Shown: one piece after another, positions 4,685-63,995 of the stretch
Numbering within the stretch: the stretch's first letter is position 1
How the letters are laid out: the number at the start of each line of letters is the position of its first letter
NCBI GenBank assembly: GCA_026770705.1
Contig: JANJGN010000150.1
Coordinates: 558,001 to 622,000 of the forward strand
Direction of reading: 5' to 3'
Length of the DNA: 64,000 nucleotides
From: Isurus oxyrinchus
Lineage: Eukaryota
Program-made: the position numbers and the translations under genes
The notes under the pieces: model-generated
The model's input: only the letters and a program-made list of their open reading frames with translations
Told to the model about the DNA's origin: nothing
The model's database searches: none

Positions 4685-4974
4685 GTAATACACGTCACTG
4701 TCTTCAGCTCTGAGACTGTCAATCCTCACCAAACAATTCTTCCCTTCCAAGTCACCGATTATTTTAGCACGTCCCACGAATGTGGCCATCCCATAATTGG
4801 GATCTTTGGTGTATGTGATGGTATATTTCCATCTATACCAATATTTATACCAAGCTCCGTGCAGTGCTGTGTAAGAGTGGGAAGGAAAGTCAAAGCTACA
4901 CGGAATAACCACACAAGAGCTGCTGATGGCCCTCCGAGGCAGCGCCTTCATAGACCATCCCTCTGACGTCACTC
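4685..4974 (-). pseudogene. Siglec-like gene A V-set exon, truncated after DVYY by a Gypsy relic
   Basis: Acceptor tttcag. SCVVIPCSF...NCLVRI...EDSDVYY, then diverges abruptly from gene B into gag-like sequence, with a stop at 4673-4675. Confidence 0.85.
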
Positions 4975-5794
4975 CTGAAAGGCAACAAGGGAAGAGACAG
5001 GACATCAAAAAGCAGAATATTACTTCAATGGAGAGAGGCAGCAGAATGCGGTACAGAGGGATCTGGGTGTCCTTGTACATGAATCACAGAAAGTCAGCAT
5101 TCAGGAACAGCAGGGAATGAGGAAGGCAAGTGGAATGTTGGCCTTTATTGCAAAGGGATGGAGTATAAAAGGAGGGAAGTCTTGCTACAACTGTACAGGG
5201 CGTTGGTGAGATTGTATCAGGAGCAGTGTGTACAGTTCTGGTCTCCTTACTTAGGGAGGGATAGACTCTGCATTGGAGGCAGTTCAGAGGAGGATCACTG
5301 GGCTGATTCCTGGGATGAAGGGGGTTTGTCTTATGAGGAAATGTTGAGCAGGTTGGGCCCTGTATCCATTGGAGTTTAGAAGAATGAGAGGTGATCTTAT
5401 TGAAACATATAAGATTCTGAGGTGGTGGGGGGTTTGACAGGGTCGATGCTGAGGGGATGTTACCCCTTGTTGGGGAATCCTGTGAAGCAATAAGGATGTT
5501 TTACTGCACTAAAGGTGCTGTATAAATGCACTGTCATTCCTATTGAAACAAGCTCTCTGATGCACAAACAGAAAATGCTGGAAAAACTCAGCCGGTCTGA
5601 CAGCATCTGTGGAGAGAGAAACAGAGTTGGTGTTTCGAGTCCGTATGAGGCTTTTGCTTTTGCTAAATTCTCTGACTCGCTATTCACTCACTCTCTGTGT
5701 GATCACTAACCCTGTTCTCTAAAATTAAATGTTCACTTCCTCACTCCAGGAAAGAATCCAATTCCCTGAGTTCCGATCAGTAATGAATTTGTAC

Positions 5795-5840
5795 CTTGCA
5801 GCAAGCTGATGAAGATCAATATCAGACCGACCTCTCCCAT
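5795..5840 (-). pseudogene. Siglec-like gene A leader exon (MGEVGLILIFISLLQ)
   Basis: 46-nt phase-1 exon with donor gtac; inverted copy of 28227-28272. Confidence 0.85.
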
Positions 5841-6109
5841 CTTCAGTTCCTCATCTAAATGGAAATGATAAAGACAGAGACTTTTTCATAAATTGTCCCC
5901 AGCGTTTCTTCCTCAAACAACAACAACTTGTGGTTAAATGGCACCTTTCAGTGAGTTAAACAGCCCCAGGGAATAAACTAATGTCAAGACAAGGAAGGAG
6001 AGATTGAGAAGGGACATCGCAAACCGATTCACCAAACACGGCAAAAATTCATTGTTCCCTCACTCCCTGTGCTGGGTGTCCAGATTTTTCTCTCAGTGAG
6101 TTTAGTCCT

Positions 6110-7240
6110 CACAATATCTATCTATCGCACTCTTCTGCTCTATCTCTCTCTCTCTCTCACACACATTCTCTCTCCAACACTCACAATCTCTCTCTATCGC
6201 ACTCTTCTGCTCTATCTCTCTCTCACACACACACATTCTCTCTCTAACACTCACAATCTCTATCTATCACACTCTTCTGCTCTCTCTCTCTCTCTCACAC
6301 ACACACATTCTCTCTCTAACACTCTCAATCTCTCTCTATCACACTCTACTGCTCTATCTCTCTCTCTCTCACAAACATACATTCTCTCTCTAACACTCAC
6401 AATCTCTCTCTATCACACTCCTCTGCTCTATCTCTCTCTCTCTCACACACACACATTCTCTCTCTAACAAACACAATCTCTCTCTATCACACTCTTCTTT
6501 CTGCTCTATCTCTCTCTGTCTCACACACACACATTCTCTCTCTAACATTCACAATCTCTCTCTATCGCACTCTTCTGCTCTATCTCTCTCTCACACACAC
6601 ACATTCTCTCTCTAACAAACACAATCTCTCTCTATCGCACTCTTCTGCTCTATCTCTCTCTCTCACAAACACACATTCTCTCTCTAACACTCACAATCTC
6701 TCTCTATCACACTCTTCTGCTCTATCTCTCTCTCTCTCTCTCTCACACATTCTCTCTCTAACACTCACAATCTCTCTCTATCACACTCTTCTGCTCTATC
6801 TCTCTCTCTCTCACACACACATTCTCTCTGTCTCCCTCCCTCAAATACATTCTCTCTCTCAGACACAAACACTCTCTCACACACTCACACACTTTCCCTA
6901 AAACTAACACAATCTCTCTTTCTGTCAAGCACACACTCTCTCTCACACACACACACTCTCTCTCTCAGACACACACATTCTCTCTCTCTCAAACATTTAA
7001 CATTTCTCTTCATCTCGATCTTCTGCTGTCTCTCTCTTTCTCTCCCTCGCACACACACACACTCTCTGTCACAAACACACTCTCTCTCCCACACACTCTC
7101 TCTCACACATTCTCACATGCACACTCTCTCCCTCATATACAAACACTCTCCCTCACACATGCACACTCTCTATCTCTTTTTCTCTCTCACACAGTCTCTC
7201 TGTCTCTCTCTCTCTCTCAGACACTCTCTCTCTCTCTGAT
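6110..7240 (+). repeat. CT/CA-rich ~55-bp minisatellite and microsatellites
   Basis: Repeated ctaacactcacaatctctctctatcacactcttctgctctatct; shorter counterpart at 27320-27960. Confidence 0.85.
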
Positions 7241-9479
7241 ACAGAATGTTTTAAGACCTGCTCATGATTTCAGCTCAAAACCCAGGTAGATTCTCCCCAG
7301 TGAGGGAGTGGTGAGGGAGTGCTGCACTGTCAGAGGATCAGTACTGAGGGCGTGCTGCACTGTCAGAGGGTAAGTACTGAGGGAGTGCTGCACTGTCGGA
7401 GGATCAGTACTGAACACAATGTCCATTCAGAACAGCTCGGTCCCCGATCAGAGAAACAGCCTCAGACAGAACCAACTGACGCTGGAATCCATACAATTCA
7501 TCAACGTGTTGGGAGTTAGTTTGATGTCGGAGATGGAGTGTTACTGGGAAGGAGGGAACCCGTCAGGATGAACAGCTCGATGTACGACAAGGAAAGGATG
7601 AGCTAAGAGGGGTTGGTCACAGACAGACGGAGCGTGTGAAGACTCAACAAGCTAATGGCAGGTGAAGAGCTGGAAAGGTGTCTTTTCAACACAAGGTTTA
7701 GACACAGAACTCGATGTTTGATCGGGTATTTCAAACCAGAGAAACTCTTTACAGGGTGAATGGACCTTGTCAATAATCCATCCAGCCAACCTCGCCTGGA
7801 GATTAGTCCAATATTAGACACTAAACCGAGTCCCCCGTCTGCCCTCTCGGGCGGGTGTGAAAGATCCCACAGCCACTATTTGGAGGAAGAGCAGGGGGGA
7901 GATCTCCCCGGTGTCCTGGGACCAATATTTATCCCTCAACCAACATCACCAAAAACAGGTGATCACATTGCTGTTTGTGGGAGCTTGCTGTGCGCTAATT
8001 GGCTGCTGCGTTTCCTACATTACGACAGTAACCACACTTCGAAAAAAGGGTGAACTCACTTGTAAAGTGTTCTGGGACATCCAGAGACCATGCTGTACAG
8101 AAGACATTTGACAGGAGCAGCAAGTGTTTTACTTACAGGAGAATGAGTCCCCAGGGTTGTAGAGTCAATCCTGTCAGATGAATGTCTAACTGGAGACACT
8201 TCAGGGAGCTGATCTAATTCTGGAAATGTTCAGTTTACCAGGATCGGAGGAGAGATGATCTTCCTCTCCTGACTGCATCGGACACGAGGTGAACTGGCTC
8301 TGGGAGGAGGGTCAGTGTTAACCCAGTTTTTCTGTGTTTGAGGGAGATGTGAAACTGGGGAAGTCACGTGGTTTTTTGGTGTGGTAACTCCATGTCTTTA
8401 TTTGGTGCAGCACTCATTTAGTTCCTGTCGTTGTTTCAATGCTACAAAACCACAGCGCATTCTGGACTATTTCTGCCTGACCTGCTGTCAGATACACACA
8501 GTCTGACAGAGAGGCGGAAATGTGGTCCCTAGCAACGTGTGTAACTGTNNNNNNNNNNNNNNNNNNNNNNNNNNNNNNNNNNNNNNNNNNNNNNNNNNNN
8601 NNNNNNNNNNNNNNNNNNNNNNNNNNNNNNNNNNNNNNNNNNNNNNNNNNNNNNNNNNNNNNNNNNNNNNNNNNNNNNNNNNNNNNNNNNNNNNNNNNNN
8701 NNNNNNNNNNNNNNNNNNNNNNNNNNNNNNNNNNNNNNNNNNNNNNNNNNNNNNNNNNNNNNNNNNNNNNNNNNNNNNNCACTCTTTTGCACAAACACTC
8801 TTTCACGCACACACATGCACACACACACACGCACACAAATGCACAAACTCACTCACACACAAACCCTCACACACACACAGACACAAACATTAGCACACAC
8901 ACTCACACACACTCACACATGCGCACATACTCTCAAACACACACTGTTTTGCACAAACACTTTCTCTTTCACACACACACATACACACACACTCTCTCTC
9001 TCACACACATGTTCTCTCTCACTCCCTGTCTCAAACACACAATCTCCCCCTCCCTCAAACACTCACACCATCTCTTTCTCGCACACTCCCTCTCTCAAAC
9101 ACACACACCCTCTTTCTCAAACACACACACACACACGATCTCACACACACACTCTCACATACACAAACACTCTCTCACAGACACACACTCTCTTTTGCAC
9201 ACACACTATCTCACACGCACATTCTCTCTATCTTTCTCTCTCACACATAAATTCTCTCTCACTCTCACAGACGTTCTCCTTCTCTCACACACACTCTCTC
9301 TCTCACACACACAAACTCTACCTCTCTTTTGCTCTCTCACACATACACACTCTCAGTCTCTCACACATACATTGTCTCTCTCTCTCACATAAACGCACTC
9401 TCTCTCTCTGAGATGGAAGGTTGGGATTTTGAGACCGTCTCAAGGTTTCAGCTTAAAATGCGGACGGACTCTTCCCAGT

Positions 9480-9730
9480 GAGGGAGTGCTGCACTGTTGG
9501 AGGGTCAGTACTGAGGGAGTGCTGCACTGTCAGAGGGTCAGTACTGAGAGAGTGCTGCACTGTTGGAGGGTTAGCACTGAGGGAGTGCTGCACTTCCAGA
9601 GGGTCAGTGCTGAGGGAGTGCTGCACTCCCAGAGGGTCAATAATGAAGGAGTGCTGCACTCTCAAAGGGTCAATGCTGAGGGAGTGCTGCACTGTCAGAG
9701 GGTGGGCACTGAGGGAATGCTGCTCTGTCA
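9480..9730 (-). repeat. 33-bp satellite (cagtgcagcactccctcagtactgaccctctga)
   Basis: Period 33; also at 7310-7412 and 24290-24620. Confidence 0.9.
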
Positions 9731-10134
9731 GACCTGCCATATTTCAGATGACATTTGAAATTAGCAACATGCCTCATGTATAATTATATATCATCAGCTC
9801 AAAATAAATAGATTATTCCTGTACGTTTCACTTTACTGTAAATTGTTTGCAGTTTCATTTCCTTAGAAACCAGGCTTGTGTGATCACTATTTTTAAATAA
9901 CGTTAATAATAAAGATGCAACAATCCACACGCACACATGTACACACACACACACACTCACTCACAAGGGTACATAGACAGACACACACTCACNNNNNNNN
10001 NNNNNNNNNNNNNNNNNNNNNNNNNNNNNNNNNNNNNNNNNNNNNNNNNNNNNNNNNNNNNNNNNNNNNNNNNNNNNNNNNNNNNNNNNNNNNNNNNNNN
10101 NNNNNNNNNNNNNNNNNNNNNNNNNNNNNNNNNN

Positions 10135-12330
10135 GTTAGAGTCCAATAAAAATTTAAAAGAATATATGATTAATACAATTGCTTGTCTTTGAGGTGTAGA
10201 TTGTTGACGTTTGCAGCTGTTCAAGGTTAATTGGTTTCCTGTGGCATCCTGGTGGTGATTTGATTCAGATTTGCACTTTGTTGAAGATGCACTGTTAGCT
10301 TCAGAAAGAGAGAGAGAGAGAGGGAGAATTTCTGCTCTTTTCCAGCAGTGTTTTTGAGTGACTGCCATCTTTCTTTTTCCTCCTACTTTCTCTTATATCT
10401 GCTTGACAGAACCTGTTGTTAAACTCCTGTCTGTATATTCCCAAAGGGAATTCGATCAGCATGTCTTGCATTCATTGTCGCAGACCAAGTAATCCCTTTT
10501 TTGATCTTTGCATCTCTGAAACATTTGATGCATTTCAAGATATAAATCAACAGGAGATGAAGGCATTTCATCCTCCACAAGAGGTTTTGAATGACTGATG
10601 AATATCTGCATGGTGAGCAGTTCCCATTAGCTTGATAGACCTACAGTGATCAGAGTCCAGCGCTTTGCATTTTTAATGGAGCCCCTGTTTCAGGTGGACC
10701 CTGACACACCTCAGTGAGAACTTTCATGCAACATGTCTGTAGTGCAATTCATTTGAAGCTTTCCAGAGAAGTGATCAAGTTTGCAGTATCAGCAATCAGG
10801 TGACTCGTGACAGCCATTTTTGATCAATGCCTAATCTTGTACTTTTGAAAAACAGGTCTCCTTTAAACAGTTCAATACGTTTTTGGCTCATTGGTTAAGT
10901 TGAAGGAAGCTCTGTTATGACATAACAGATGGTAAATGCTGAGCTGTTCAAATCCTGGAGGGAAACTTGAAACAACTGTCACAACTAATTTCCAACTTGT
11001 ATGTTTTGAGATGTGGGCTTTGAATTCAGTAGTAATGAGATTAAGATGTTTAAGAGGTAATTATGGTTGGTTGAAAAAAAGGGTTTAAAATATATTTTCC
11101 CCCAAATACAATTTCCAAAGCAAGTCTCTTTGATTGTTAAGAATGAACCAATTAAACCACGTATGGTGGAGTCAAAGAAAGAGTAAGTTTATTAGTTACC
11201 TAACTGGAGGAAAAATAATNNNNNNNNNNNNNNNNNNNNNNNNNNNNNNNNNNNNNNNNNNNNNNNNNNNNNNNNNNNNNNNNNNNNNNNNNNNNNNNNN
11301 NNNNNNNNNNNNNNNNNNNNNNNNNNNNNNNNNNNNNNNNNNNNNNNNNNNNNNNNNNNNNNNNNNNNNNNNNNNNNNNNNNNNNNNNNNNNNNNNNNNN
11401 NNNNNNNNNNNNNNNNNNNNNNNNNNNNNNNNNNNNNNNNNNNNNNNNNNNNNNNNNNNNNNNNNNNNNNNNNNNNNNNNNNNNNNNNNNNNNNNNNNNN
11501 NNNNNNNNNNNNNNNNNNNNATAATTATAGAGTCCAATAAAAAATTAAAAGAGTTGTTTGCTTGTACTACAGCGTAGGCTGTGAAGTTTGAAGCTGTTTT
11601 AAATTAGTTGGTTTTCTGTAGATTCCTGTATTTTATCTGGCTCAGACTTGCACATTGTTGAAGACATTCTGTTAGCTTCAGACAGAGAGAGAGAGAGGGA
11701 GAAATCATTTCTGCTCTTTTCCAGCAGTGTTTGTGGAAGACTGCCATATTTCTTTTTCCCCTCCTTTCTCTTATATCTGCTTGGCAGAACCATTTGTTAA
11801 ACTCCTGTCTGTATATCCCTGAAGTCAATTCGATCAGCATGTTTTGCATTCATTGTTATAGACCAAGTATTCCCATTTTTTTATCTTTGCATCTCTGAAA
11901 CCTTTGATGCATTTCAAGATATAAGTCAACAGGAGACGGGGGTATTGTATCCTCCACAGGGGGTTTTGAATGGTTGATGATTATCCGCTTGGTGAGCAGT
12001 TCCCAATGTTTTGATTGAACTACAGCTGATCAAAGTCCAGCACTTTACATTGTAATGCCTTCCTTTTAAGAGTGTCTCTATTTGAAGTGGACCCTGACAC
12101 ACCCCAGGCGTGAACTTCCATGCAACAGGTCTGCAGTGCAATTCATTTGAACCTTTCCAGAGAAGTGATCAACTTCACAGTATCAGCAATCAGGTGACTT
12201 GTGTCAGCCATTTTTGATCTGTGTACAATCTTGTATTTCTTTGAAAAACAGGTCGCTTTTAGACAGTTCAATATGTCTTTGGTCTCTTAGTTAAGTTGTA
12301 GGACGCTCTTAATCGCAGTTTGTTGTCATT
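10135..12330. repeat. Two diverged direct copies of an unidentified ~750-bp segment (10135-10920; 11521-12310)
   Basis: Shared blocks such as ctgctcttttccagcagtgttt, atctttgcatctctgaaa and atcagcaatcaggtgact. Confidence 0.8.
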
Positions 12331-20915: not shown

Positions 20916-20948
<33 letters not shown>

Positions 20949-28226: not shown

Positions 28227-28272
28227 ATGGGAGAGGTCGGTCTGATATTGATCTTCATCAGCTTGCTGCAAG
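28227..28272 (+). CDS. Siglec/CD22-like gene B leader exon (MGEVGLILIFISLLQ)
   Basis: ATG at 28227, donor CAAG|gtac, phase 1. Confidence 0.9.
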
Positions 28273-29092
28273 GTACAAATTCATTACTGATCGGAACTCA
28301 GGGAATTGGATTCTTTCCTGGAGTGAGGAAGTGAACATTTAATTTTAGAGAACAGGGTTAGTGATCACACAGAGAGTGAGCGAATAGCGAGTCAGAGAAT
28401 ATAGCAAAAGAAAAAGCCTCATACGGACTCGAAACACCAACTCTGTTTCTCTCTCCACAGATGCTGTCAGACCTGCTGAGTTTTTCCAGCATTTTCTGTT
28501 TGTGCATCAGAGAGCTTGTTTCAATAGGAATGACAGTGCATTTATACAGCACCTTTAATGCAGTAAAACATCCTTATTGCTTCACAGGATTCCCTCCCAA
28601 GGGGTAACATCCCCTCAGCATCCACCCTGTCAAACCCCCCACCACCTCAGAATCTTATATGTTTCAATAAGATCACCTCTCATTCTTCTAAACTCCAATG
28701 GATACAGGGCCCAACCTGCTCAACATTTCCTCATAAGACAAACCCCCTTCATCCCAGGAATCAGCCCAGTGATCCTCCTCTGAGCTGCCTCCAATGCAGA
28801 GTCTATCCCTCCCTAAGTAAGGAGACCAGAACTGTACACACTGCTCCTGATACAATCTCACCAACGCCCTGTACAGTTGTAGCAAGACTCCCCTCCTTTT
28901 ATACTCCATCCCTTTGCAATAAAGGCCAACATTCCACTTGCCTTCCTCATTCCGTGGTGTTCCTGAATGCTGACTTTCTGTGATTCATGTACAAGGACAC
29001 CCAGATCCCTCTGTACCGCATTCTGCTGACTCTCTCCATTGAAGTAATATTCTGCTTTTTGATGTCCTGTCTCTTCCCTTGTTGCCTTTCAG

Positions 29093-29449
29093 GAGTGACG
29101 TCAGAGGGATGGTCTATGAAGGCGCTGTCTCGGAGGGCCATCAGCAGCTCTTGTGTGGTTATTCCGTGTAGCTTTGACTTTCCTTCCCACTCTTACACAG
29201 CACTGCACGGAGCTTGGTATAAATATTGGTATAGATGGAAATATACCATCACATACACCAAAGATCCCAACTATGCGATGGCCACATTCGTGGGACGTGC
29301 TAAAATAATCGGCGACTTGGAAGGGAAGAATTGTTCGGTGAGGATTGAGAGTCTCAGAGCTGAAGACAGTGATGTGTATTACTTCTACGTGGATGCGGAG
29401 GGCTACACAGATCACACTTTTACACAACCAGTCCAACTCCAGGTTCTTG
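29093..29449 (+). CDS. Gene B V-set Ig exon (Siglec-type Cys pattern, no essential Arg: DVYYFYV)
   Basis: 357 nt, open, phase 1-1, tttcag / gtaagt. SCVVIPCSF, GRAKIIGDLEGKNCSVRI, EDSDVYYF. Confidence 0.92.
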
Positions 29450-29579
29450 GTAAGTCCCAGTTCCTTTCACACTCAGTCTATCAGCACAAGGGGGTCATGT
29501 TCTCATCTCAGAGCCAGGCAGTCATGGGTTGAATTCCTGCTCCAGGAGATGTCAGAACAAAGTCCAGTATGTGATCTGG

Positions 29580-29975
29580 TGCAGTACTGAGGGAGTTCCA
29601 CACTGTCAGAGGGTCAGTACTGAGGGAGTGCTGCACTGTTGGAGGGTCAGTACTGAGCGAGTGCCACACTGTCAGAGCATCAGTACTGCGGGAGTGCTGC
29701 ACTGTCGGACGGTCAGTACTGAGGGAGTGCTACACTGTCGGAGGGTGAGTACTGAGGGAGTGCTGCACTGTCACCGGGTCAGTACTGATGGAGTGCTGTA
29801 CTGTCGGAGGGTCAGTATTGAGGGAGTGCTGCACTGTCGGAGGGTCAGTACTGATGGAGTGCTGTACTGTCGGAGGGTCAGTACAGGGGGAGTTCTGCAC
29901 TGTCGGAGGGTGAGTACCGAGGGGGTGCTGCACCTTTGGGGGGTCAGTATTGAGGGAGTGCTGCACCATTGGGGG
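29580..29975 (-). repeat. 33-bp satellite
   Basis: Same unit, reverse orientation. Confidence 0.9.
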
Positions 29976-30624
29976 GGTCTTTGCCGAGTGAGTGCTGCTC
30001 TGTCTGAGAATCATCACTTGTATCAAAACGTTTTTAACTTTACTGTTGTTCCCACTTCAGCTGCAACTGCTCCACATCCCCATGTGTTAACTGGAGCATG
30101 TCAGCCTGGAGTTACGTGGAATTGCAGAGCAGAATCTGCTCTCACACATTGAAGCTGGCAATCGCTAAGTGTCCCTCAGTGATGATGTTTTCTGATGGAA
30201 TGAAACTTGGCAAAGCAGTGGGTAGTGATAAGGAGAGATTGGGCATGAGAGGGGCAGGATCAGGGTGAGGTGGGCAGACACATGGCTGATGCAGTTCACC
30301 GCAGTGTCGTGTGAAGTGACGCACTTTGTCAGGATGAATACAGACAGATATTGGACAGTAATGATTTGGACAGGTGTAGGTGAGCAGAGACCTGGGCGTC
30401 TCTCTGCACTCATTCTGAAAGATTAAAGGACAACTTGTTGAGGTGATGAAGAAAGAAAATGTCTTCCTTGTGTTAACAGACTGAGGAACCGAGTTAAAAG
30501 CAAAGAGATCATGCGGGAACTTTATAAATCACTGGTTAGAACTCAGCTGGAATATTGTTCAGAACGCTGGGCCTCCACACTTCAGGAAAGATGTAAGAGC
30601 TTCAGAAAGGGTGTCCAAGAGGAC

Positions 30625-31110
30625 AAAACTGTAAAAACTGGGACATAAGAGTCCTGCTCCAAACTCGTCTTGTATAGCTTAACATATAACAGTGGTAAAA
30701 CTGGGAAATAAGAGTCCTGCTCCAAACTGGTCTTGTATAGCTTAATATAAAACACCAGTAAAACTGGGAAATAAGAGTACTGGTCCAAACTGGTCTTGTA
30801 TAGCTTAATATAGAACACCAGTAAAACTGGGAAATAAGAGTACTGGTCCAAACTGGTCTTGTATAGCTTAATATAGAACACCAGTTAAACTGGGAAATAA
30901 GAGTACTGGTCCAAACTGGTCTTGCATAGCTTAATATAGAACACCAGTTAAACTGGGAAATAAGAGTACTGGTCCAAACTGGTCTTGTATAGAATAATAT
31001 AGAACACCAGTGAAACCGCGAGATAAGAGTCCTGGTCCAAACTGGTCTTGTATAGAATAATATAGAACACCAGTAAAACTGCGAGATAAGAGTACTGATC
31101 TGAACTGATT
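30625..31110. repeat. 61-bp minisatellite (~8 copies) inside a CR1 fragment
   Basis: aaactgggaaataagagtactggtccaaactggtcttgtatagcttaatatagaacaccag repeated. Confidence 0.9.
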
Positions 31111-31602
31111 TTTTGCTTCTGGGTGGAGAGGAGATTGAGCAGAATGGGTCCAGGGATGAGGGATTTTAGCTACAAGGTTGGGTTGGAGAAGCTGGGGTTG
31201 TTCTCCTTGGAGCAAAGGAGATTGAGGGGGGATCTGATCGAGGTGTACAAGATGATGATGGGTTTAGATAAGGTAGACGAAGAGAAGATGTTGCCATTAG
31301 CTGATGGTACAAGGACCGGGGGACACAGATTGAAGGTTGTGGGTGGGGGGCGATGTGAGGAGGAACTTTTTTACACAGCGAGTGGTAATGAGCTGGAACT
31401 CGCTGCCTACGAGGATGGTGGAAGTGGAGACGATGAACAATTTCAAAAGGAAGATGGTGGGTGGGATGCCAATCAATCGGGCTGCTTTGTCCTGGATGGT
31501 GTCGAGCTTCTTGAGTGTTGTTGGAGCCGCACCCATCCCGGCAACTGGAGAGAATTCCATCACACTCAGTGTTTAATGTGTTGATAATTTTGTATTTGAA
31601 AG

Positions 31603-31860
31603 ATTCTCCTCACAACACGTCTGTCAGGATGACACTGGAAAAAGGAAAGGTGATTTCTCTAAGTTGTTCCAGTGACGGGAATCCAGCAGTCCACAATTTC
31701 ACCTGGTTTAAGATCTCCCAAGGAAAGGTGACGAATCTCGCGCTCGCTGGTCAAACTATTACAGTTCCTTATGGATTCGATGAGGAAATCTCCTACTACT
31801 GTGAAGCAACAAGTATCCTGGGCAGTTCCCAGTCTCTGCCCATTAGAATTCCCACTGAAT
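31603..31860 (+). CDS. Gene B CD22-like C2 Ig exon
   Basis: 258 nt, phase 1-1; LSCSSDGNPAVHNFTWFK...YYCEATSILG. Confidence 0.9.
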
Positions 31861-36609: not shown

Positions 36610-36891
36610 ACACACCACAGAATCTCTCAATTAATTCTCTTGATATGATTAACGTTTCATTGATCAATATAATTGAGGGGAATTCTGCAGTGATAATCTG
36701 CTCAGTCGAGAGCTTCCCAGCTTCTAACCTGACGTGGCGACATCTTAATGTCCCAATGAACAGAACAAGTTCCAACAATGAGCTGTGGTTGGTGATTCCT
36801 CACGTTACATCCAGGGACACTGGAGACTATCAATGTGTGGCAGAGAATGAACATGGAGCAGTGGAGGGGTTCATAACCATCACTGTGGAAC
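36610..36891 (+). CDS. Gene B C2/I-set Ig exon (module shared with genes C and D)
   Basis: 282 nt, phase 1-1, ttttcag / gtgagt. Confidence 0.9.
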
Positions 36892-37370
36892 GTGAGTTAC
36901 ACAGACTTCAACAACTCTCTCAGATTTGAACACATATACATAAATGCACTCCCACACGCACTCACTGCACTGGAGTCTTGGTGTCAGCTCCAATTCTGGA
37001 TGGAACGAAGGTAAACTCCAGATCAACAAGACCCTGAATTGGATGACCAAACTCCTGAACAGTGAATTGTAGATTTACCCCTCAGTGCTCCATCAATCAA
37101 ATACAATTCATTGCCTGTAAAGGCTTGGCGAAATCCTGAGGATGTGAATGAAAGTTTCTTTCATTCTAGATTGATAGCACCTCAACTGGTGGGGGAATGC
37201 AACTGCAGTGTGACAGTTTACATAGGCAGTGTCCATTATAAATGTGACAGAGGAACTTATGCTGAGGAAGGTGCCTGGAATTGTATTCAGACATCAGATA
37301 CGTAGAGATGATACATGGAGTCTTGATGTGCATTGTGCTTGCTCACTCTAAAATCTTTATATGTTTTTAG

Positions 37371-37652
37371 ATGCTCCACAGAACCTCTCAATTACTTCTC
37401 TTGATATGATTAACGCTTCATCGATCAATATAATTGAGGGGAATTCTACAGTGATAATCTGCTCTGTCGAGAGCTTCCCAGCTTCTAACCTGACGTGGCG
37501 ACATCTTAATGTCCCAATGAACAGAACAAGTTCCAACAATGAGCTGTGGTTGGTGATTCCTCACGTTACATCCAGGGACACTGGAGACTATCAGTGTGTG
37601 GCAGAGAATGAACATGGAGCAGTGGAGGGATTCATAACCATCACTGTGGAAC
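37371..37652 (+). CDS. Gene B second C2/I-set Ig exon (shared module)
   Basis: 282 nt, phase 1-1, tttttag / gtgagt. Confidence 0.9.
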
Positions 37653-37689
37653 GTGAGTTACACAGAATTCTACATTCTCTTGTTATTAG

Positions 37690-38725
37690 CTCATGGGATG
37701 TGGGCATTGTTGACAAGGCCAGAAATTATTGCCCATCTGTAACTGCCCCTTGAGAAGGTGGTGGTGAGCTGCCTTCTTTAACCACTGCAGTCCATGTGGT
37801 GTAGGCACACCAACAGTGCTGTTAGAGAGGGAGTTCCAGGATTTTGACCCAACGACGGTGAAGGAACGGCCGATATAGTTCCAAGTCCCAGGGCAGACCA
37901 CCACCTCATGTTGATTTCCAAGTCACACACCTCACTGACTTGGAACTGTCTTGGTGGAAGAGGTTAAGGGTTTGGAAGGTGCAGTCGAAGAAGCTTTGGT
38001 GAGTTGCTGCAGTGCATCTTGTAGATGGTGCATACACTGCTGCCATTGTGTGCCAGTGGTGGAGGGTATGAATGTTTATGCTGGTGGATGGGCTGTCGAT
38101 CAAACAAGCTGCTCCTGGATGGTGTCGAGCTTCTTGAGTGTTGTTGGAGCTGCACTCATCCAGCCAAGTGGAGATTATTCCATCACAATCCTGACTTGTG
38201 CCTTGTCGATGGTGGACAGGCTTTGGAGAGTCAGGAGGTGAGTTACTCACCGCAGAGTTCCCAGCCTCTTACCCGTTCTTGTAACCACATTATTTCCTGT
38301 TGCCGGGTTGTTGCCAGGGCCAATAGCCTTTGCTGTATCCAGTATCATCAGCTGATTCCTGATGTCACGTGGAGTCAATCGAATTGTCTGAAAGCTGACA
38401 TCTGTGATGCTGGGACCCTCTGGAGGAGGCCGAGATGGAGCATCCACTCAGCACTTCTGGCTGAACATGGTTGCCAATGCTTCAGCCTTGTCGTTTGCAC
38501 TGATGTGCTGAGCTCCCCCATCATTAAGGATGGGGATATTTGTGGAATATCCTCCTCCTGTTAGATCTTTAATTGTCCATCACCATTCATGACTGGATGT
38601 GGCAGGACTGCAGAGCTTAGATCTGACCCGTTGGTTGTGGGATCGCTTTGCTCTGTCTATAGCATGTTGTTTCCGCTGTTTGGTGTGTATGTAGTCCTGT
38701 GTGTCACCTCAGCAGCTTGGCACCT
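37690..38725 (-). mobile_element. CR1/L2-clade LINE fragments
   Basis: Same family as 14350-15410; AKAIGPGNNPA, internally deleted. Confidence 0.8.
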
Positions 38726-38918
38726 CTGTTATATGTGAATCCTCCTTATAGAAACCTGCATGTACATGGATATTATCAATAAATATTACATAGATAAATG
38801 TTATTTGTATAGACCTTTCATGCATAGACAATATCACTTCACAAGTTCAGAATTACTATATGTACATAGGGAACCATTCTCAAACTGTACCGGAGTCATT
38901 CATTGGCTGATTTTACAG

Positions 38919-39015
38919 GGCGAGATTCCAATGAATGGAAAGCAGGATTGCTTGGAGCTGGAATCTGTTTGAGTGTTGGACTGAGTGGATTCTTCATCTT
39001 CAAGTGTATGAGAAA
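38919..39015 (+). CDS. Gene B transmembrane exon (RDSNEWKAGLLGAGICLSVGLSGFFIFKCMRK)
   Basis: ttttacag / gtaagt, 97 nt, phase 1 to 2; paralogous to the gene D TM exon. Confidence 0.9.
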
Positions 39016-40453: not shown

Positions 40454-40609
40454 CGTGGTTGGGCTTTGAGGAATCAGGTGAGTCACACACCACAGGATCC
40501 CCAGCCTCTCAGCTGCTCCAGTAGCCTGGTTATTGATATGGCTGCTCCAGTCCTGTATCTGCAATGTTTTATACAGTCACTCCCAAACCCAACCAAACTC
40601 ACACCCAAC

Positions 40610-46360: not shown

Positions 46361-46782
46361 AACGGAACGATTGGAATTCACTTCCACCACCAACACCGTC
46401 CTTTGTTGATGTTGTGACTTTATAAAGACAGATTCCAATGATTGATGCCTTTGAAAGATTTCTACTGATTATTGAGATCTGGGTGTGAGGCTCAGGTCCG
46501 TTGTACAGAACATCTTTCTAGCTCAAGGGATGAGGGAAGTGCAGAGACATGAGCTTTGGGATGTCCTGAGGTGCTGAAAGGTGCTATAGAAATGCAAATC
46601 CTTCATTGTTTGTCTTTCTTAAAGCCTTGTAACTCTCTGCAGAGCACCTATCATCCCACAGAGAATCAAATTAGTCTGTGAAGACATTGTCTAAAAGCAG
46701 TTCTGATCTCTCGAAAGGTGCTGGACAAGAGGTGAGATCTCATTAACTCCTTTCTCTTTCACAGCTTGAGAGTGAGAAGTGG

Positions 46783-46843
46783 ATGGAATATCTGGGAGTG
46801 GACAATGATCGGGAAATCTACTTCCTCTTGTCACTTCTCCAAG
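46783..46843 (+). CDS. Gene C leader exon (MEYLGVDNDREIYFLLSLLQ; or MIGK-IYFLLSLLQ from ATG 46805 with one base missing)
   Basis: Acceptor at 46763-46764, donor CAAG|gtaata, phase 1; ends in SLLQ like the gene B leader. Confidence 0.75.
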
Positions 46844-47546
46844 GTAATATCATCGTCAGCTTGGACAGATTTATAGTTAACAGTCTTTGTAAAAGATCAT
46901 TCTTATCTCTTTATCTCTGTAACCTCCTGCAACGCAACCAATCAACTTCCCAGGTCTCTGTGTTACTCCAATTCTGGCCTCTTGACCATCCCCCGATTCC
47001 CATCACTCCAATACTGGCGGCCGTGCCTACAGCTGCCTGGGACCTGAGCTCTGGAATTCACTCCCTAAACCTCGGCGATGGAGGAGATCAGAGGGTTTCA
47101 TTTTACTGAGAATCACCACGACCACATCACAGCTGCAGTGAGAATAGACAGAGAGTCCAGCCCTCACACTTACTGCACAGTTTCACCATAGCAACCACAA
47201 TATGGAAATTTAAAAATACTGAAAGTTAAACTGAAGCTCAGCCCATTCAGTGTTGAGAGATGAGATATTTACACAGTTTCCCTGTCTATCTTGTAGACAC
47301 TGTGTTGGGTGGAAGACTGGCTTCACTAAACAGGGTCCTGAGGACCATGAGCCAATGTAGAATGAACTTGTCCACTCCTGTGTCCAGGATTCTCTTCTAT
47401 CTGTTGTGAAACCTTGGGGAGTTCCTTGTGTGTCCTGTAGATGGTCCACACTGCAGCCACTGTGCCCCAGTGATGGAAGGGGTGGATATCGAGTCTAGTG
47501 GATCTACAAACCATCCAGAGTCAAATATTGATATTTCTCTCCCCAG

Positions 47547-47920
47547 TTGGACTGTCACAAGAGTGGAAAGGTGACACTCCACGAGAGGTGACAGCGCAGG
47601 AAGGTTCGTATGTACAGATTCCATGTCATTACAGTTACTTATCAAATTTCGTAGGGAGATCACGTGCGGAATCTGGTTGAAAGGAATAGATGGGAACCCA
47701 CAGCCTAAATGGTCTATAGCCTTTCACTCCGAGGGTCACAATCACAGGGATCAAAGATTCCGCCATCGTACCCGGCTGTCTGGAGACCTGAAAGATGGCG
47801 ACTGTTCCCTGATTATAAACAACATCAGACGGGAAGATGCAGGACCTTATTTCTTCAGGATAGAATTTGACAGCAGTAATAGTTACAACTACTATCCTGT
47901 AACCCAGCTTCATGTTTCTG
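47547..47920 (+). pseudogene. Gene C Siglec V-set exon with the essential Arg (PYFFRIE) but a 1-nt deletion near 47666
   Basis: ccccag / gtaagt; 374 nt (375 needed). AQEGSYVQIPC..GIW..RTRLSGDLKDGDCSLIINNIRREDAGPYFFR. Confidence 0.88.
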
Positions 47921-48320
47921 GTAAGTGCTGTGTTATAATTACTCAACAATTCACATTCAACACTCAATGGGAATTAACACAAACTGTGACGTTTACATAT
48001 TAACACAAAACACAGCTTATTATAACACACTGTCTGATTCTCAATAACCTGGTGATAGCTTCCAGTTCAGTCCTAAAGCAACCTCTAATACTCACTTTAA
48101 TATCAATGATTAAATGTATTGACTGTGTCCATCAAAGTTATCAGGTTATCCACTCTCATCGATCTCTCTAATCCTGTTTAAAATAATTTCCTGATCATTG
48201 TAACCTCTCAGTTCTGATATCATCCTTGTAAAAGTGCTTTCTCTTGTGGGACTGTGATTTCTATTTGAACTGATGCTTCACGTTATATTTCTCTAAAAGG
48301 ATCCATTCTCCGTCTGTTAG

Positions 48321-48617
48321 ATTTCACAGATAAACCCACGATATTCCCTGCTGAAATTATTGCAGGAAAGCCTGTGGATGTAAGCTGCACCTTCAACACA
48401 ACGTGCAATGGAACAGCAGCACCTGTCTTAACCTGGGACACTCCCACTGACGTACCTGGATCAGTCTCAAACACTGTAACTCAGCATGGTGTCACTCTGA
48501 CCTATACTTCTGTTCTGACCCTGATCCCATCACTCAAACACCACAGACACACTCTCAGCTGCAGAGTGAGATATCCATCTGTTTCATCGGAGCGGACCCT
48601 CGTACTAACTGTGCAAG
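48321..48617 (+). CDS. Gene C Siglec domain-2 C2-set exon
   Basis: 297 nt, open, phase 1-1. KPTIFP..VSCTFNTTCNGTAAPVLTW..SVLTLIPSLKHHRHTLSCRV, the CD33/MAG-type D2 with an extra Cys. Confidence 0.92.
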
Positions 48618-48940: not shown

Positions 48941-49093
48941 GACATCTTAATGTCCCAATGAACAGAACAAGTTCCAACAATGAGCTGTGGTTGGTGATTA
49001 CTCACGTTACATCCAGGGACACTGGCGACTATCAGTGTGTGGCAGAGAATGAACATGGAGCAGTGGAGGGGTTCATAATCATTACTGTGGAAT
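48941..49093 (+). pseudogene. Gene C 5'-truncated copy of the shared C2 exon
   Basis: Only HLNVPMNRTS...ITVE plus the gtgagt donor remain; the acceptor and first ~130 nt are replaced by unrelated sequence at 48758-48940. Confidence 0.85.
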
Positions 49094-50756: not shown

Positions 50757-50896
50757 ACAGTGGAGGAGAGATTCTGCACGTGATCCTGATCCTGGGAATA
50801 CGAGCTGTGATATTCCTTGTGGCTGTGGTTATCACTATCGCTGGAGTCTGTGTCTGGGAGAGACAAACAGTGAAAGGAAGTCGACAGACTGTTTAA
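50757..50896 (+). CDS. Gene C TM/terminal exon with an intramembrane Arg and a short Tyr-free tail (SGGEILHVILILGIRAVIFLVAVVITIAGVCVWERQTVKGSRQTV*)
   Basis: Acceptor ttctctag, phase 1, CGA at 50801-50803 inside a hydrophobic run, TAA at 50894-50896. Confidence 0.82.
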
Positions 50897-59032: not shown

Positions 59033-59149
59033 CTAATATCTACAGCAGAGACCACAAGTCTCATTTGGTTCTCTCCAATTACAGCAGTTACAGCAGAATC
59101 TGCAGAGCTGCTGTCTGCCCATTCTCTTCTGGCGCTGCAGCAAGGAGCC
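59033..59149 (-). CDS. HAMP: Hepcidin exon 3 (furin site + mature peptide)
   Basis: Acceptor ttttccag. 117 nt = 38 codons + TAG. Pattern C-x2-CC-x-CC-x8-C-x2-CC. Confidence 0.95.
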   Translation of the reverse strand, partial: GSLLQRQKRMGRQQLCRFCCNCCNWREPNETCGLCCRY

Positions 59150-62100
59150 CTGGAAAAGCAGGAGGACAATAGGTGAGAACATTCCGGAAAGAAAGAAGGC
59201 ATCATTTCAATCAGGCGCGTCATTGGAAGGAGGATGGCGCATTTCTATAGCGCCTTTCCCCTCCTCAGGATGGCCCAAAGTGTTCCACAGCTGAAGGAAG
59301 GACTTTTTCTGAAGTGAGCTCACCGCTGTAATGTAGGAAACGCAGCAGGCAATTCACGCACAGCAAGATCCCACAAACAGAAATGTGATAATGGCCCCGA
59401 TTTTCAGTTTTTTACCAATGTCAGTTGAGGGATAAATGTTTGCCCCAGGAAAGCAGACATAACTGCATCTCATCCACCCCCCACCACCCCCTCCACACAT
59501 ACCCCCAACTCCTGACGCACTTCATCTAAATTGTGGCCATGGAATCCTCTATATCCACCTGAGAGGGCAGATGTTGTCTCAGTTTAACATCTCATCTGAA
59601 AGACAGCGCCTTCAACAGTGCAGCACCCCCTCAGTACTGACCCTCCGACTGTGCAGTACTCCCTCAGTACTGACCGTCTGACAATGCAGCACCCCCTCAG
59701 TACTGACCCTCCGACTGTGCAGTCCCCCACCGGTACTGACCCTCTGACAGTGCAGCACTCCAAGACTGACCGTCTGACAATGCAGCACCCCCTCAGTACT
59801 GACCCTCCGACTGTCCTGCCCCCCCGCCGGTACTGACCCTCCGACAGCTCGGTAATTTCTCAATTACGCCTGGTGGTCCTTTTAACTCAGAGCTGAGAGT
59901 TGCAGAGAATCGAGCAGACACCCTGAACTGACACTTGCAGTGCAAGTACTGGGAGCGCGCTGGTCATTATCATGCTGCTGTCTGTGGGATCTTACTGTGC
60001 GCCAATGGCTGATTCTTTTCCCACAGTACATCAGTGACCTCACATGAAAGAAAAAAAGCACTTGATTGTCTGCGAAACACTTTGGGACGTCCTGATGTGT
60101 TGGAAGGCGCTAGAGAAATGCAAGTCCTCTTTGTCTTTCACTCGATCCTCTAAGGTGTCTGTTGATTAACCAGCCTCTCGGTGTATGATGTAGGCCTGGT
60201 TATAAACAGTTAGAAGGATCAAATATCAAAAGTGCTTTGGCTGACAGTCAAACCGATTGTGCATTCGGAGAGATTAGATATGGTCTGCACACAATGACTC
60301 CAGTCTCTGGCACTGACTGCCGCCTGGGGTCTCCCTTCCACATAACACTCACAACTTGCATTTACACAGCGCCTCTGACATTGCAAAATGTCCCAGCCCA
60401 CATTACCGGAGCGTAAATCAGAGAGAAGTCTAACACTGAGTCACATATGGAGATATTAGGGATAGGTGACCAAAAGCTTGGTCAAAGATGTCAGTTTTTA
60501 AGGAGCGTCTTAAAGGAGAGAGAGAGAGAGAGGCAGAGAGGTTAAGGGAGGGTATTCCGGAGCTCAGGGCCCCAGGCAGCTGAAGGCACGGCCACCAATG
60601 GTGGAGCGATGGGAATCAGGGGGACCCGGGAGATGCAGTAATGTCAGAGATTTTGGAGGAACATCGGGACCGGAGGAGGTGTTCTCCTGCTCCATATCTC
60701 TCTCTCTCTTCCTCTCATCCACTCCTCCTCTCCCTGTCTCTCTCTCTCCTACTCTTCCTCTCAATTGCCCTCTCTCCCAATCTTTCTCTCCTCTCTCCCT
60801 TTTCCTGTCTCTCTCCCTCTCTCTCTCCCTGTCTCATTCTCCCACTCTGTATCTCTCCCTCTCTCTCACACTATTTTTGTACCTTTCGCTCACTCTGTAA
60901 CTCTCCCTTTCCTGTTAATTTCTCTCTCTTGGACAATCTCTCTTCCCTTTTCACTTTCCCTCACTCTGCATCTCTTCTTTAATTTCTCCCTCTGTCACTC
61001 TCTCCCACCTATGTTCTTTCCCTTTCACCCCTCCCCGTCCCACTCTCTGTCTCTCTCTTCCAATCCCTCCCTCCCCCATTCCATCCCTCTCTCCGACTCT
61101 CGACTCCCAGCCTCTCTTTAACCCACTCCCAGGCTGGATCAGTCTCCCTCTCACTATTCCCGGCGTGGGTTACATTTAAAATTCCTGTGGGGATATGTTC
61201 ACTTCCTTGGAATTGCCTCTTCCCAGCTTTGCAAAAAAAGTTGGGGGGGGGGGCTCGATTTCAAACATGCCTCCTGAGTATAACCGAGACAGACTGCCAC
61301 TGAAATCAGCTTGAAATCAGAAAACTTTCTGTGGAAGAAACGAGCAGGGAGAAACCTTAAAATAAGGAATGAATTTCCACCTACCGTGTCCGGGGAATCC
61401 ACAGATTTCTCAATCGTCGAAGAACCTAAAGCAGTGTCAACCTGCAAAAAGAAAGAATTTATCAGGGAGAAAGTGAGAGGAGGATTGAGGGAGAGGGAGA
61501 GAGAGAGAGAGAGGTACAGGAGAGAGAGGGGGAGGAGGACAGACTTGCATTTCTCTAACGCCTTTCACCACATCCCAAAGCATTTCACAGCCACTGAAGG
61601 ATGTTTTTGAAGTGCACTCACACTGTAGGAAATGTGGCAGCTGATTTGTGCACAGCAAGATCCCACAAATAGCAATGTGATCATGGCCTAGATCATCTGT
61701 TTTTGGTGATGTTGGGTGAGGGATAAATATTGGTGCCAGGACACCGGGGAGAACTCCCCCTGCTCTTCCTCCAAATAGTGGCTGTGGGATCTTTCACACC
61801 CGCCCGAGAGGGCAGACGGGGGACTCAGTTTAATGTCTCATTCAACATTGTTGCGCTCCCTCAGTACTAACCCTTTGACACTGCAGCACTCCCTTAGTAT
61901 TAACCCTTCGATAGTGCTGCGCTCCCTCAGTACTGTCCCTCCGTCAGTGCAGCTCTATTTCAGTACTAACCCTTCGACACAGCAGCACTCCCTCAGTACT
62001 GACCTCCGACAGTATAGCACTCCCTCAGTACTGTCCCTCCAATAGTGCAACACTTCCACACTACTGACCCTCTGAGAGTGCAGCACTCCCTCAGCACGGA

Positions 62101-63713
62101 GCGTTTATCTACATTATGGGACTGAATTCCCTGGAGTGAGACTCAGACCAGTGATTTAGGTAGGGTTGTGGGGGCTGGAGGAGGTTACAGCGATAGGGAG
62201 GGCTGTAGAGGCTGTAGGAGGTTACAGAGAAAGGGAGGGTTGTAAGGGCTGTAGGAAGTTACAGAGATAGGGAGGGTTGTAGAGGCTGTAGGAGGTTACA
62301 GAGATAGGGAGGGTTGTAGGGGCTGGAGGAGGTTACAGAAATAGGGAGGGCTGTAGAGGCTGTAGGAGGTTACAGAGATAGGGAGGGTTGTAAGGGCTGT
62401 AGGAAGTTACAGAGATAGGGAGGGTTGTAGAGGCTGTAGGAGGTTACAGAGATGGGGGAGTTGTGGGGGCTGGAGGAGGTTACAGAGGTAGGGAGGTGTG
62501 TAGGGGCTGTAGGAGGTTACAGAGATGGGGTGGTTGTGGGGGCTGGAGGAGGTTACAGATGTAGGGAGGGTTGTAGAGGCTGGAGGAGGTTACCAAAATA
62601 GACACTGCTGTAGGGGCCACAGTAGGTTACAGAGATAGGGAGAGTTATAGTGTGGAGAGGAGCTTATAGAGTTCAGGAGGATTGTAGGGGCTGGAGGAGG
62701 TTACAGTGATTGTGAGGGTTGTGGGGCCTGGAGGATTTTACAGAGATAGGGAGGGTTGTAGGGTCTGGAGCAGGTTACAGAGATAGGGAGGGTTGTAGGG
62801 TCTGGAGCAGGTTACAGAGATAGGGAGGGTTGTAGGGTCTGGAGCAGGTTACAGAGATAGGGAGGGTTGTAGGGTCTGGAGGAGGTTACAGTGATCGTGA
62901 GGGTTGTGGGGCCTGGGGGAGGTTACAGAGATAGGGAGTGTTGTGGGGACTGTAGGAGGTTACATAGATAGGGAGGGTTGTCGGGTCTGGAGGAGGTTAC
63001 AGAGATAGGGAGGGTTATAGGGACTGGAGGAGGTTACAGAGATAGGGAGGGTTGTAGAGACTGTAGGATGTTACAGAGATAGGGATTGTTGTAGGGGCTG
63101 GAGGAGGTTACAGAGATAGGGAGGGTTGTAGGGGCTGGAGGAGGTTACAGAGATAGGGAGGGTTGTAGGGGCTGGAGGATGTTACAGAGATAGGGAGGGT
63201 TGTAGGGGCTGGAGGAGGTTACAGAGATAGGGAGGGTTGTAGGGGCTGGAGGAGGTTACAGAGATAGGGAGGGTTGTACGGGCTGGAGGAGGTTACAGAG
63301 ATAGGGAGGGTTGTAGGGGTTGGAGGAAGTTACAGAGATAGGGAGGGTTGTAGGGGCTGGAGCAGGTTACAGAAATAGGGAGGGTTGTACGGGCTGGTGG
63401 AGGTTACAGAGATAGGGAGTCGCTGAGGAGGGATTGAAAACAAGAATGAGAATTTCAGGGGAAATGACAGAAGGAAATGATGTTAAATTCATAGAGGGTG
63501 ACAATATTAAAGGCACGAACATAATAATATCAAACTGCGGAAGAGACCAGTCTATCTGGGTGGTAGACGTAGAGTCATGTGCAAGAAACACCTCACCCAG
63601 AGGGACATCTCTTAGCTTAACCTCGACAAGGAGAAGAAGTGACTCAGCTGCAGGGAGAGCAGCAAAGTCAGAGTGAACAAGACAAGTCGCCATTTCATCT
63701 GGGAGCTTCCCAT
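59033..63713 (-). CDS. HAMP: Hepcidin (prepro-hepcidin), 3 coding exons: 63713/63698..63622 (or ..63597), 61441..61385, 59149..59033; exon 1 frame is disrupted as assembled
   Basis: Exon 3 gives GSLLQRQKR|MGRQQLCRFCCNCCNWREPNETCGLCCRY*: an RQKR furin site plus the 8-Cys hepcidin pattern. Exon 2 is a phase 0-0 pro-region. Exon 1 is the hydrophobic leader MKWRLVLFTLTLLLSLQL. TATA and GGCGCC lie upstream, and Siglec/CD22-like genes are adjacent. Confidence 0.9.
61385..61441 (-). CDS. HAMP: Hepcidin exon 2 (pro-region VDTALGSSTIEKSVDSPDT)
   Basis: Acceptor ttctttttgcag, donor ACG|gtaggt. 57 nt, phase 0-0, in frame with exon 3. Confidence 0.8.
61545..61845. mobile_element. Short interspersed repeat (SINE-like); copies at 7820-8085, 25650-25925 and 59230-59610
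   Basis: Shared ~280-nt sequence (gcacagcaagatcccacaaa...ctccaaatagtggctgtgggatctttcacacc). Confidence 0.7.
62155..63420 (-). repeat. 37-bp minisatellite in hepcidin intron 1
   Basis: Same unit as 1990-2610, opposite orientation. Confidence 0.92.
63622..63713 (-). CDS. HAMP: Hepcidin exon 1 (signal peptide (MGSSQ)MKWRLVLFTLTLLLSLQLSHFFSLS)
   Basis: ATGs at 63713 and 63698, ~75-90 nt after a TATAA, encode a signal-peptide-like stretch. Donor gag|gttaag at 63621 is one base out of phase. The alternative donor tgg|gtgagg at 63596 is in phase but includes TAA at 63614-63612. Confidence 0.7.
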
Positions 63714-63779
63714 CTCTGCCTGTCTCTTCTGATCTTCTGGCTCTGCTTTGATGCTTTGGTTTGTAACTAGAGGAGCTTC

Positions 63780-63995
63780 CTGCTCTTATACCTGAAACAC
63801 TTGAAGGGGACAGCCGCGGGTGGGTTGCTGTGTGGTATTACACCCATTTCTGGATATTGCAGTGTCGATGTTCCCTGTCCCACTGGCCTGGGACCAGCAG
63901 TAAGGTCACTGGGACATTGACTGTCTGGCGCCGAGAACTATCAGTCCCTCCGCAACGCCCTTCACCTTGTGCAAATATGTGTTCATATTGATGCA
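63780..63995 (-). promoter_or_regulatory. Hepcidin proximal promoter: TATAA (63790-63786), GGCGCC (63927-63932) abutting GTCT/AGAC (63923-63926), C/EBP-like TTGCACAA (63974-63967)
   Basis: The motifs are read directly. GGCGCC BMP-responsive elements and C/EBP sites are established regulators of vertebrate HAMP. Confidence 0.65.

Follow-up and report, generated by a model that had tools for sequence, protein, structure and literature searches.

A Siglec-family gene cluster beside hepcidin in Isurus oxyrinchus, most likely at the USF2-HAMP-MAG-CD22 position

We take the human gene order at 19q13.12 to be USF2-HAMP-MAG-CD22-FFAR, with hepcidin (HAMP) next to genes of the Siglec family. A stretch of 64,000 nucleotides from Isurus oxyrinchus (assembly GCA_026770705.1, contig JANJGN010000150.1, positions 558,001 to 622,000 of the forward strand; hereafter the window) holds a hepcidin gene beside several Siglec-like genes, and raises the question of whether this is the same ancestral neighborhood and what kind of Siglecs are found there. 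The best explanation overall, to which we give a probability of about 75%, is that the window is the edge of an elasmobranch Siglec cluster that abuts the 3' end of hepcidin, most likely in the segment orthologous to USF2-HAMP-MAG-CD22.

We scanned 352 stop-to-stop open reading frames (ORFs) of at least 55 aa, taken from outside tandem repeats in the window. Repeats are abundant in this vertebrate DNA, four N gaps lie at 8.5-12.7 kb, between genes A and B, and an Rfam search gave no matches. The window contains four Siglec-family gene bodies, A and B on the minus strand and C and D on the plus strand, and a hepcidin gene on the minus strand. Hepcidin is transcribed leftwards, toward the Siglec cluster, and gene D is the nearest body, with 8,137 bp between the two stop codons; the preliminary description of this DNA, which had four Siglec-like bodies in the path of hepcidin and about 8 kb to the nearest, was accurate on both counts. 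Three points go beyond it: in the assembly all bodies but gene C are broken, genes C and D face hepcidin and are not co-directional with it, and exon 1 of hepcidin is interrupted. The features are listed below; ITIM stands for immunoreceptor tyrosine-based inhibitory motif and TM for transmembrane segment.

4685..5840, minus: gene A, leader (5840-5795) and class-C V exon (4974-4685), truncated at 4685 by a retroelement remnant; pseudogene fragment
4685..9971, no strand assigned: inverted duplicate of 24051-29382 (gene C upstream region, leader and V), 96-98% identity outside tandem repeats
23354-23073, 22302-22021, 21256-20975 and 20228-19947, minus: gene B, four near-identical 282-nt C2 exons
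19136-19040, 17978-17897 and 16848-16601, minus: gene B, membrane and tail exons, with uncharged TM and ITIM LFYANI
28227..31860, plus: gene C 5' part, leader (28227-28272), class-C V exon (29093-29449) and C2 exon (31603-31860)
36610..39015, plus: gene C 3' C2 exons (36610-36891 and 37371-37652) and uncharged TM (38919-39015)
39778-39862, 40376-40477 and 42238-42354, plus: gene C tail exons, with YENC, YANC and the ITIM-like SVYGNL
46805..48617, plus: gene D 5' part, leader (46805-46843), class-D V exon (47547-47920) and second domain (48321-48617, open)
48941..49093, plus: gene D, orphan 3' half of a C2 exon, its acceptor replaced by an insertion of ~180 bp upstream
50757..50896, plus: gene D last exon, TM with arginine and short tail (LGIRAV, Arg codon 50801-50803)
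59033..59149, minus: hepcidin exon 3, RQKR furin site and 29-residue mature peptide (Pfam PF06446)
61385..61441, minus: hepcidin exon 2 (propeptide), 57 nt, phase 0-0, placed by splice sites and open frame only
63597..63698, minus: hepcidin exon 1 (signal peptide), start ATG at 63698 and a second in-frame ATG at 63713
63784..63974, minus: hepcidin promoter motifs, within 302 bp of upstream sequence

The V domains proved to be of Siglec type, as had been proposed. When the gene C V domain was compared with the PDB, the best 17 of 86 matches (E<=0.01) were all Siglecs, at 57 to 32 bits with MAG first, and antibodies scored 29 bits or less. The gene D V fragment matched sialoadhesin first and then mostly CD33-related Siglecs. 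A search with the C2 exons does not separate immunoglobulin (Ig) proteins from one another. Relatives were collected from automatic gene models already annotated at NCBI, where 25 of 2,407 candidates passed in the class-C search and 156 of 329 in the class-D search (120 of them listed), giving 141 named proteins (25 plus 120, minus two overlaps and two unnamed rows). Every named relative is from a shark or ray, in agreement with the earlier attribution of this DNA to a cartilaginous fish. At 29.1 kb, the V exon shares 95% identity with a protein of the white shark Carcharodon carcharias and 90-93% with proteins of Cetorhinus maximus; for the second-domain exon, at 48.3 kb, identity to a Carcharodon protein is 98%. 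These values place the DNA in a lamniform shark.

The position of the cluster resembles that in mammals. In both, the first gene on the 3' side of hepcidin belongs to the Siglec family, at ~8 kb in the shark and at a HAMP-MAG distance that we take to be ~7 kb in human. The shark neighbor differs in being a multi-copy cluster of mixed orientation and not a single-copy MAG. By a rough estimate, the chance that the edge of a Siglec cluster adjoins hepcidin is a few in 20,000. Because the same kind of first 3' neighbor in human and shark is unlikely to arise by chance, the locus is likely orthologous to the human 19q13 block. The linkage between hepcidin and the receptors probably reflects positional history and not shared function. 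HAMP, USF2 and MAG are near FFAR2 in mammals, and MAG and USF2 fall in one chicken linkage group, according to the accessible portion of PMC4453067, in which CD22 is unmentioned; the corresponding portions of PMC6877629, PMC6795676, PMC3832898 and PMC8455134 contain nothing on HAMP-Siglec synteny.

Genes C and D have the Siglec layout of an N-terminal V-set domain, C2 domains, TM and tail, and A and B have parts of it. Gene C is the only body with an open frame, which encodes 541 aa in the order leader-V-C2-C2-C2-TM-tail and is 79% identical to Carcharodon protein P0008 over 555 columns, with a gap that corresponds to a missing domain. This is the second domain, which comes right after V in 22 of the 25 class-C relatives; there was no remnant of it between 29450 and 31603. 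The gene C V domain has tyrosine at the site of the arginine essential for sialic-acid binding, and has kept the interdomain cysteine even though domain 2 is missing. The acceptor of the second tail exon (40370-40376) is apparently 3 bases off that of P0008, with the frame preserved. Two orphan copies of the first tail exon, with flanks, lie on the plus strand between genes C and D (45501-45733 and 46096-46519). A 24-bp minisatellite of 64 copies (40607-42138) is found in the last intron of gene C.

The other three bodies are incomplete or interrupted. Gene B has no 5' half, with no leader, V or second domain upstream on the minus strand, and its distal TEYAQI-type motif, as found in relatives P0004 and P0010, is out of frame by a 1-nt shortfall. 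In gene D the leader and the V exon are each 1 nt short, resulting in two frameshifts. Its V domain keeps the essential arginine and has tyrosine in place of the interdomain cysteine, and its tail has no tyrosine; the layout, leader-V-domain 2-TM, is that of Carcharodon P0035, and the TM and tail appear to be of the activating type. The V exon of gene A ends just before the essential-arginine site. Exactly at that end begins a degenerate remnant resembling a long terminal repeat (LTR) retroelement (3300-4684, minus), with a weak Pfam match to a gag-type aspartyl protease at 3610-3942 (E=0.007). A TG/CA microsatellite at 23790-24080 coincides with both the end of the missing 5' half of gene B and the start of the duplicated block upstream of gene C, and is likely an inversion breakpoint or a misjoin.

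The V domains of the family fall into two classes. V domains came from 128 of the listed proteins, which yielded 169 (154 distinct), and two more came from the window. Class D comprises 136 V domains from 20 species and the window, with arginine at the essential site in 130 and lysine in 6 among the relatives listed. The six with lysine are all from carpet shark (P0109, P0115, P0133, P0134 and P0137). Class C comprises 20 V domains from 13 shark and ray species and the window, and all 20 have tyrosine at the position that aligns with the essential arginine of MAG and sialoadhesin. All 20 class-C domains and 135 of the 136 in class D carry the Siglec cysteines (the B-E pair and the interdomain cysteine, with no F-strand cysteine); the exception is gene D of the window. 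In a FastTree analysis, class C was recovered as a single clade of 20 with support of 1.0 and a long stem, and class D fell into order-level groups; the tree had 39 order-pure clades, the largest with 25 ray domains. Thus the lineage-specific expansion of the preliminary description stands for sharks and rays as a whole (20 species), with order-level bursts inside, and does not stand for any narrower lineage.

Compared between sharks and rays, V domains were 0.66 identical in class C (3 x 17 pairs) and 0.54 identical in class D. In the CC' loop, all 20 class-C domains share Tyr44, Trp45, Trp48, Lys49 and Tyr50, at columns that vary in class D. Sharks and rays separated ~270-300 million years ago, and the loss of the arginine in class C is older than that split. 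The fixed tyrosine together with the near-invariant aromatic loop suggests an old ligand other than sialic acid, and class C would be Siglec-derived without being a functional Siglec in the strict sense. Where this arginine is lost, ape and human Siglecs no longer bind sialic acid; the hominid losses are recent or polymorphic, according to the part of PMC7379906 available, whereas in sharks and rays alike the class without it is fixed. The two classes were found on sequences of equal length in 9 of the 12 species with recorded lengths and on different ones in all three rays, which suggests that the cluster is split in rays. Three sharks had matches on a second chromosome-scale sequence.

The tails come in at least three kinds. 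An ITIM followed by TEYxxI was present in 22 of the 141 listed relatives, always with a spacing of 23 residues. The arginine TM exon was matched by 9 of the 141 listed relatives, from 5 species and including none of the 25 class-C relatives; this is a count of exon matches, since the automatic count of charged TMs is affected by boundary lysines and was not used. The class-C V domain is found paired with the tail of gene B (P0004), with that of gene C (P0008) and with a third tail (P0001 and P0012). The tail of gene B and the TM of gene D together have what characterizes CD33-related Siglecs, namely an ITIM with a distal TEY motif, and a basic TM residue in the activating partners.

There are also points that weigh against our interpretation of the locus and the family. 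USF2, LSR, MAG, CD22 and FFAR were not found in the window, which ends 302 bp above the hepcidin ATG, elasmobranchs have more than one Siglec-like locus, and human MAG is presumably on the same strand as HAMP, whereas gene D faces hepcidin. Because the window has no other marker and there are several Siglec-like loci, orthology is something that we infer. ITIM pairs ~23 residues apart also occur in unrelated receptors. The automatic models of the relatives may be chimeric, inflating the apparent shuffling of exons, and class-C relatives were gathered by word sharing with the window V domain, which may inflate their conservation.

A different concern is whether the lesions are real. The interruptions in B, D and hepcidin and the missing domain of gene C could be assembly artefacts in a repeat-rich region, the real genes being intact, and this we consider unlikely. 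Each of the three frameshifts in B and D is a shortfall of 1 nt in a run of two or three bases, as judged from the proteins of relatives, and would fit such errors, as would the N gaps between A and B and the location of the B/C junction inside the TG/CA microsatellite. Against this, six of eight duplicate pairs aligned (4,204 columns) without any indel, the seventh had one, and the eighth, an older pair, had ten gap events. There are thus too few indels for a uniform error rate near 1 in 700 to be likely, and A, B and D are therefore read as decaying copies. Also weighing against artefacts are the loss from gene D of a cysteine conserved in 135 of 135 relatives, and the retroelement that cuts gene A. 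We favor, as a reading and not a proof, one open gene (C) and three copies (A, B and D) that appear to be decaying.

The hepcidin gene was recognized by the Pfam Hepcidin profile PF06446, with 30.7 bits (cut-off 27, E=4e-7) in the ORF at 59036-59206 on the minus strand, the only hepcidin match among the 352 ORFs. Like other vertebrate hepcidins (HAMP; teleost Hamp1 and Hamp2), it has three coding exons, a signal peptide, a basic furin site followed by an 8-cysteine peptide, and a motif of the BMP-response type. The mature peptide has 29 residues, 8 Cys and a net charge of +2, and exon 3 matched bass hepcidin 1s6w weakly (E=0.26). The promoter has a TATA box (63790-63784), a C/EBP-like site (63974-63967) and the BMP-response-type GGCGCC (63932-63927) with AGAC directly after it; GGCGCC occurs twice in the window, with 0.01 expected per 302 bp. 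These motifs presumably have their usual regulatory roles. The shark gene differs from other vertebrate hepcidins in its 8-residue loop between Cys5 and Cys6, in an N-terminus unlike that of Hamp1, in having no STAT consensus in the 302 bp upstream of the ATG, and in its interrupted exon 1. In this exon the better donor (after 63597, phase 0, score 3.0) is preceded by an in-frame TAA (63614-63612), and the weaker alternative (after 63622, score -1.0) is a phase-2 donor, which does not suit exon 2. There is accordingly no clean open frame into exon 2 as assembled, and no alternative middle exon passed the splice filters. Much of intron 1 is occupied by a 37-bp minisatellite of 34 copies (62157-63419); the same unit occurs as an inverted array at 2024-2608, whose flanks are not shared.

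No shark homologue of this hepcidin was retrieved. A word-index search gave no candidate among proteins of 31-100 aa, a full HMMER scan gave one unnamed match of 577 aa (34% identity, with six stretches) and no annotated relative, the ESM Atlas gave one unrelated cluster at 0.76, and the hepcidin exons had no match in any of the 141 Siglec relatives. A plasma study of nurse shark lists hepcidin and reports the whale shark orthologue as missing, in the part of PMC9207270 available. Fish are said in PMC4453067 to lack hepcidin, but PMC5665920 and PMC6887715 contradict this, as far as these excerpts go.

These features bear on a second alternative, that the locus is secondary or paralogous, with a divergent hepcidin copy (HAMP2-like or a pseudogene) beside a Siglec-like cluster, and with the iron-regulating hepcidin and the true MAG and CD22 elsewhere or further along. 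We consider this quite improbable. It would account for the interrupted exon 1, the unusual N-terminus and long loop of the mature peptide, the nearest AATAAA at ~1.1 kb past the hepcidin stop, the lack of an annotated relative and the several Siglec-like loci of elasmobranchs. The core of the peptide is closer to sea bass Hamp2 than to Hamp1, by comparison with peptides given in the accessible part of PMC5665920, where Hamp2 is also described as not regulating ferroportin. However, the TATA box, BMP-response-type and C/EBP-like motifs, furin site, eight cysteines and splice sites of exons 2 and 3 are intact, and HAMP2 is restricted to acanthopterygians according to the excerpt of PMC6887715. 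A tandem hepcidin copy would in any case mark the same locus.

Which Siglecs these are was addressed with profiles, one built from 12 of the 25 class-C relatives and one from 18 of the 120 listed class-D relatives. Against the PDB, the class-C profile gave MAG 211 bits, Siglec-8 96, CD33 79 and CD22 76, and the class-D profile gave CD33 126, Siglec-8 124, MAG 121, CD22 66 and Siglec-15 46; such totals vary with the number of domains in the PDB chain. For chains of similar size, CD22 (323 residues) and MAG (317 residues), the scores were 76 vs 128 with class C and 66 vs 120 with class D. CD22 was missing from the V-domain matches listed (60 for gene C and 44 for gene D). The name CD22-like in the preliminary description is therefore not borne out, and MAG-related fits class C better, as its sequence suggests. 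Class D cannot be assigned to either MAG or the CD33-related group, because its MAG score nearly equals that for CD33. An AlphaFold model of the class-C V domain had a mean predicted local distance difference test (pLDDT) score of 57.8, and a fold search with it found no match at E<=0.001 (template-modeling score ~0.3); it was discarded.

Similarity to MAG (Siglec-4) extends to the V-C1-C2 layout and to the many relatives with a MAG-type membrane-proximal domain. The shark receptors differ from it in having ~34% V identity to mouse MAG (36 of 105 columns for gene C), tyrosine in place of the sialic-acid arginine, a variable number of domains, multiple copies and other tails. The marks of MAG itself (a conserved single-copy gene, five Ig domains, the sialic-acid arginine) were not found together, and neither were those of CD22 (closest similarity to CD22, seven Ig domains, a multi-ITIM tail). 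It is thus very improbable that these genes are the shark CD22 or MAG themselves, multiplied: some relatives are automatically named CD22-like or MAG-like, weak Pfam Ig_CD22 matches fall below cut-off and, in the PDB, class C matches MAG best, as does the membrane-proximal domain of class-C relatives, but CD22 ranks well under MAG and CD33 with both profiles, gene C lacks the MAG arginine, and the same relatives also bear the names Siglec-10, -12, -13 or -14, CD33-like or sialoadhesin-like, a mixture that gives such names little weight as evidence of orthology.

The CD33-related Siglecs (CD33, Siglec-5, -7, -8, -9 and -10; activating Siglec-14 and -16) are alike in other ways. They also form a fast-evolving cluster with pseudogenes and inverted duplication, carry an ITIM with a distal TEY-type motif and include activating members with a basic TM residue, and CD33 and Siglec-8 are the highest scores for class D. 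The mammalian CD33-related cluster is, we take it, not next to HAMP.

We propose that the cluster evolves by birth and death together with exon shuffling, with two V classes, a variable number of C2 exons and at least three membrane and tail modules being recombined. Ligands, adaptors and signaling are what we infer, the latter two from mammalian Siglec biology. Receptors with tyrosine tails would most likely be inhibitory, recruiting SHP-1 or SHP-2 and dampening leukocyte activation, and those with a TM arginine and short tail would most likely be activating through an FcR-gamma-type adaptor with an ITAM, the tyrosine-based activation motif of immunoreceptors. Similar ectodomains with opposite signals would make these paired receptors under pressure from pathogens, a possible source of the rapid turnover and pseudogenes. 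Sialic acid is the probable ligand of class-D V domains, with specificity that varies. Those of class C probably do not bind it, and probably use the aromatic loop to bind another conserved ligand.

Other repeats in the window are widespread. Fragments of reverse transcriptase from long interspersed elements (LINEs; Pfam RVT_1, below cut-off) are at 14975-15472, 33200-35420 and 55256-55600, with one long piece in a gene C intron. One 33-bp unit occurs in eleven arrays (at 7312, 9479, 17408, 24290, 26692, 29582, 35523, 45791, 52226, 59615 and 61856). A direct repeat of ~780 bp with 81% identity (10137-10913 and 11528-12309) lies between N gaps and has no Pfam match.

The linkage of hepcidin and Siglecs is expected, yet unproven as orthology, and by itself would extend a gene order known from mammals to the oldest branch of jawed vertebrates, which is useful but expected. 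Cao et al. 2009 reportedly proposed that all Siglecs share this common ancestral region, which makes the synteny less novel. The open-access full text contained no paper describing shark Siglec clusters or shark hepcidin synteny; subscription papers are outside this coverage. The shark hepcidin, which was not retrieved from protein collections, shows the form of the peptide in the shark lineage.

The arginine-less class and the paired tails are more interesting. The class lacking the arginine offers a natural case of a Siglec fold that has long been conserved with a changed putative ligand. It is possible, though doubtful, that sharks and rays have paired inhibitory and activating Siglecs at the ancestral HAMP-MAG-CD22 position, with an ITIM-plus-TEY tail homologous to that of CD33-related Siglecs and an arginine-less class that has bound a non-sialic ligand since before the shark-ray split. 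If so, the paired ITIM-plus-TEY architecture would date from the jawed-vertebrate ancestor. In the available parts of two sources, fish genomes are described as lacking ITIM-bearing CD33-related Siglecs (PMC7226832) and the Siglec family is tabulated under Tetrapoda (PMC13262535). With a large cluster in sharks and rays that combines CD33-like inhibitory tails with activating partners, it becomes possible to test whether paired Siglecs arose by shared ancestry at the MAG/CD22 locus or by repeated convergence.

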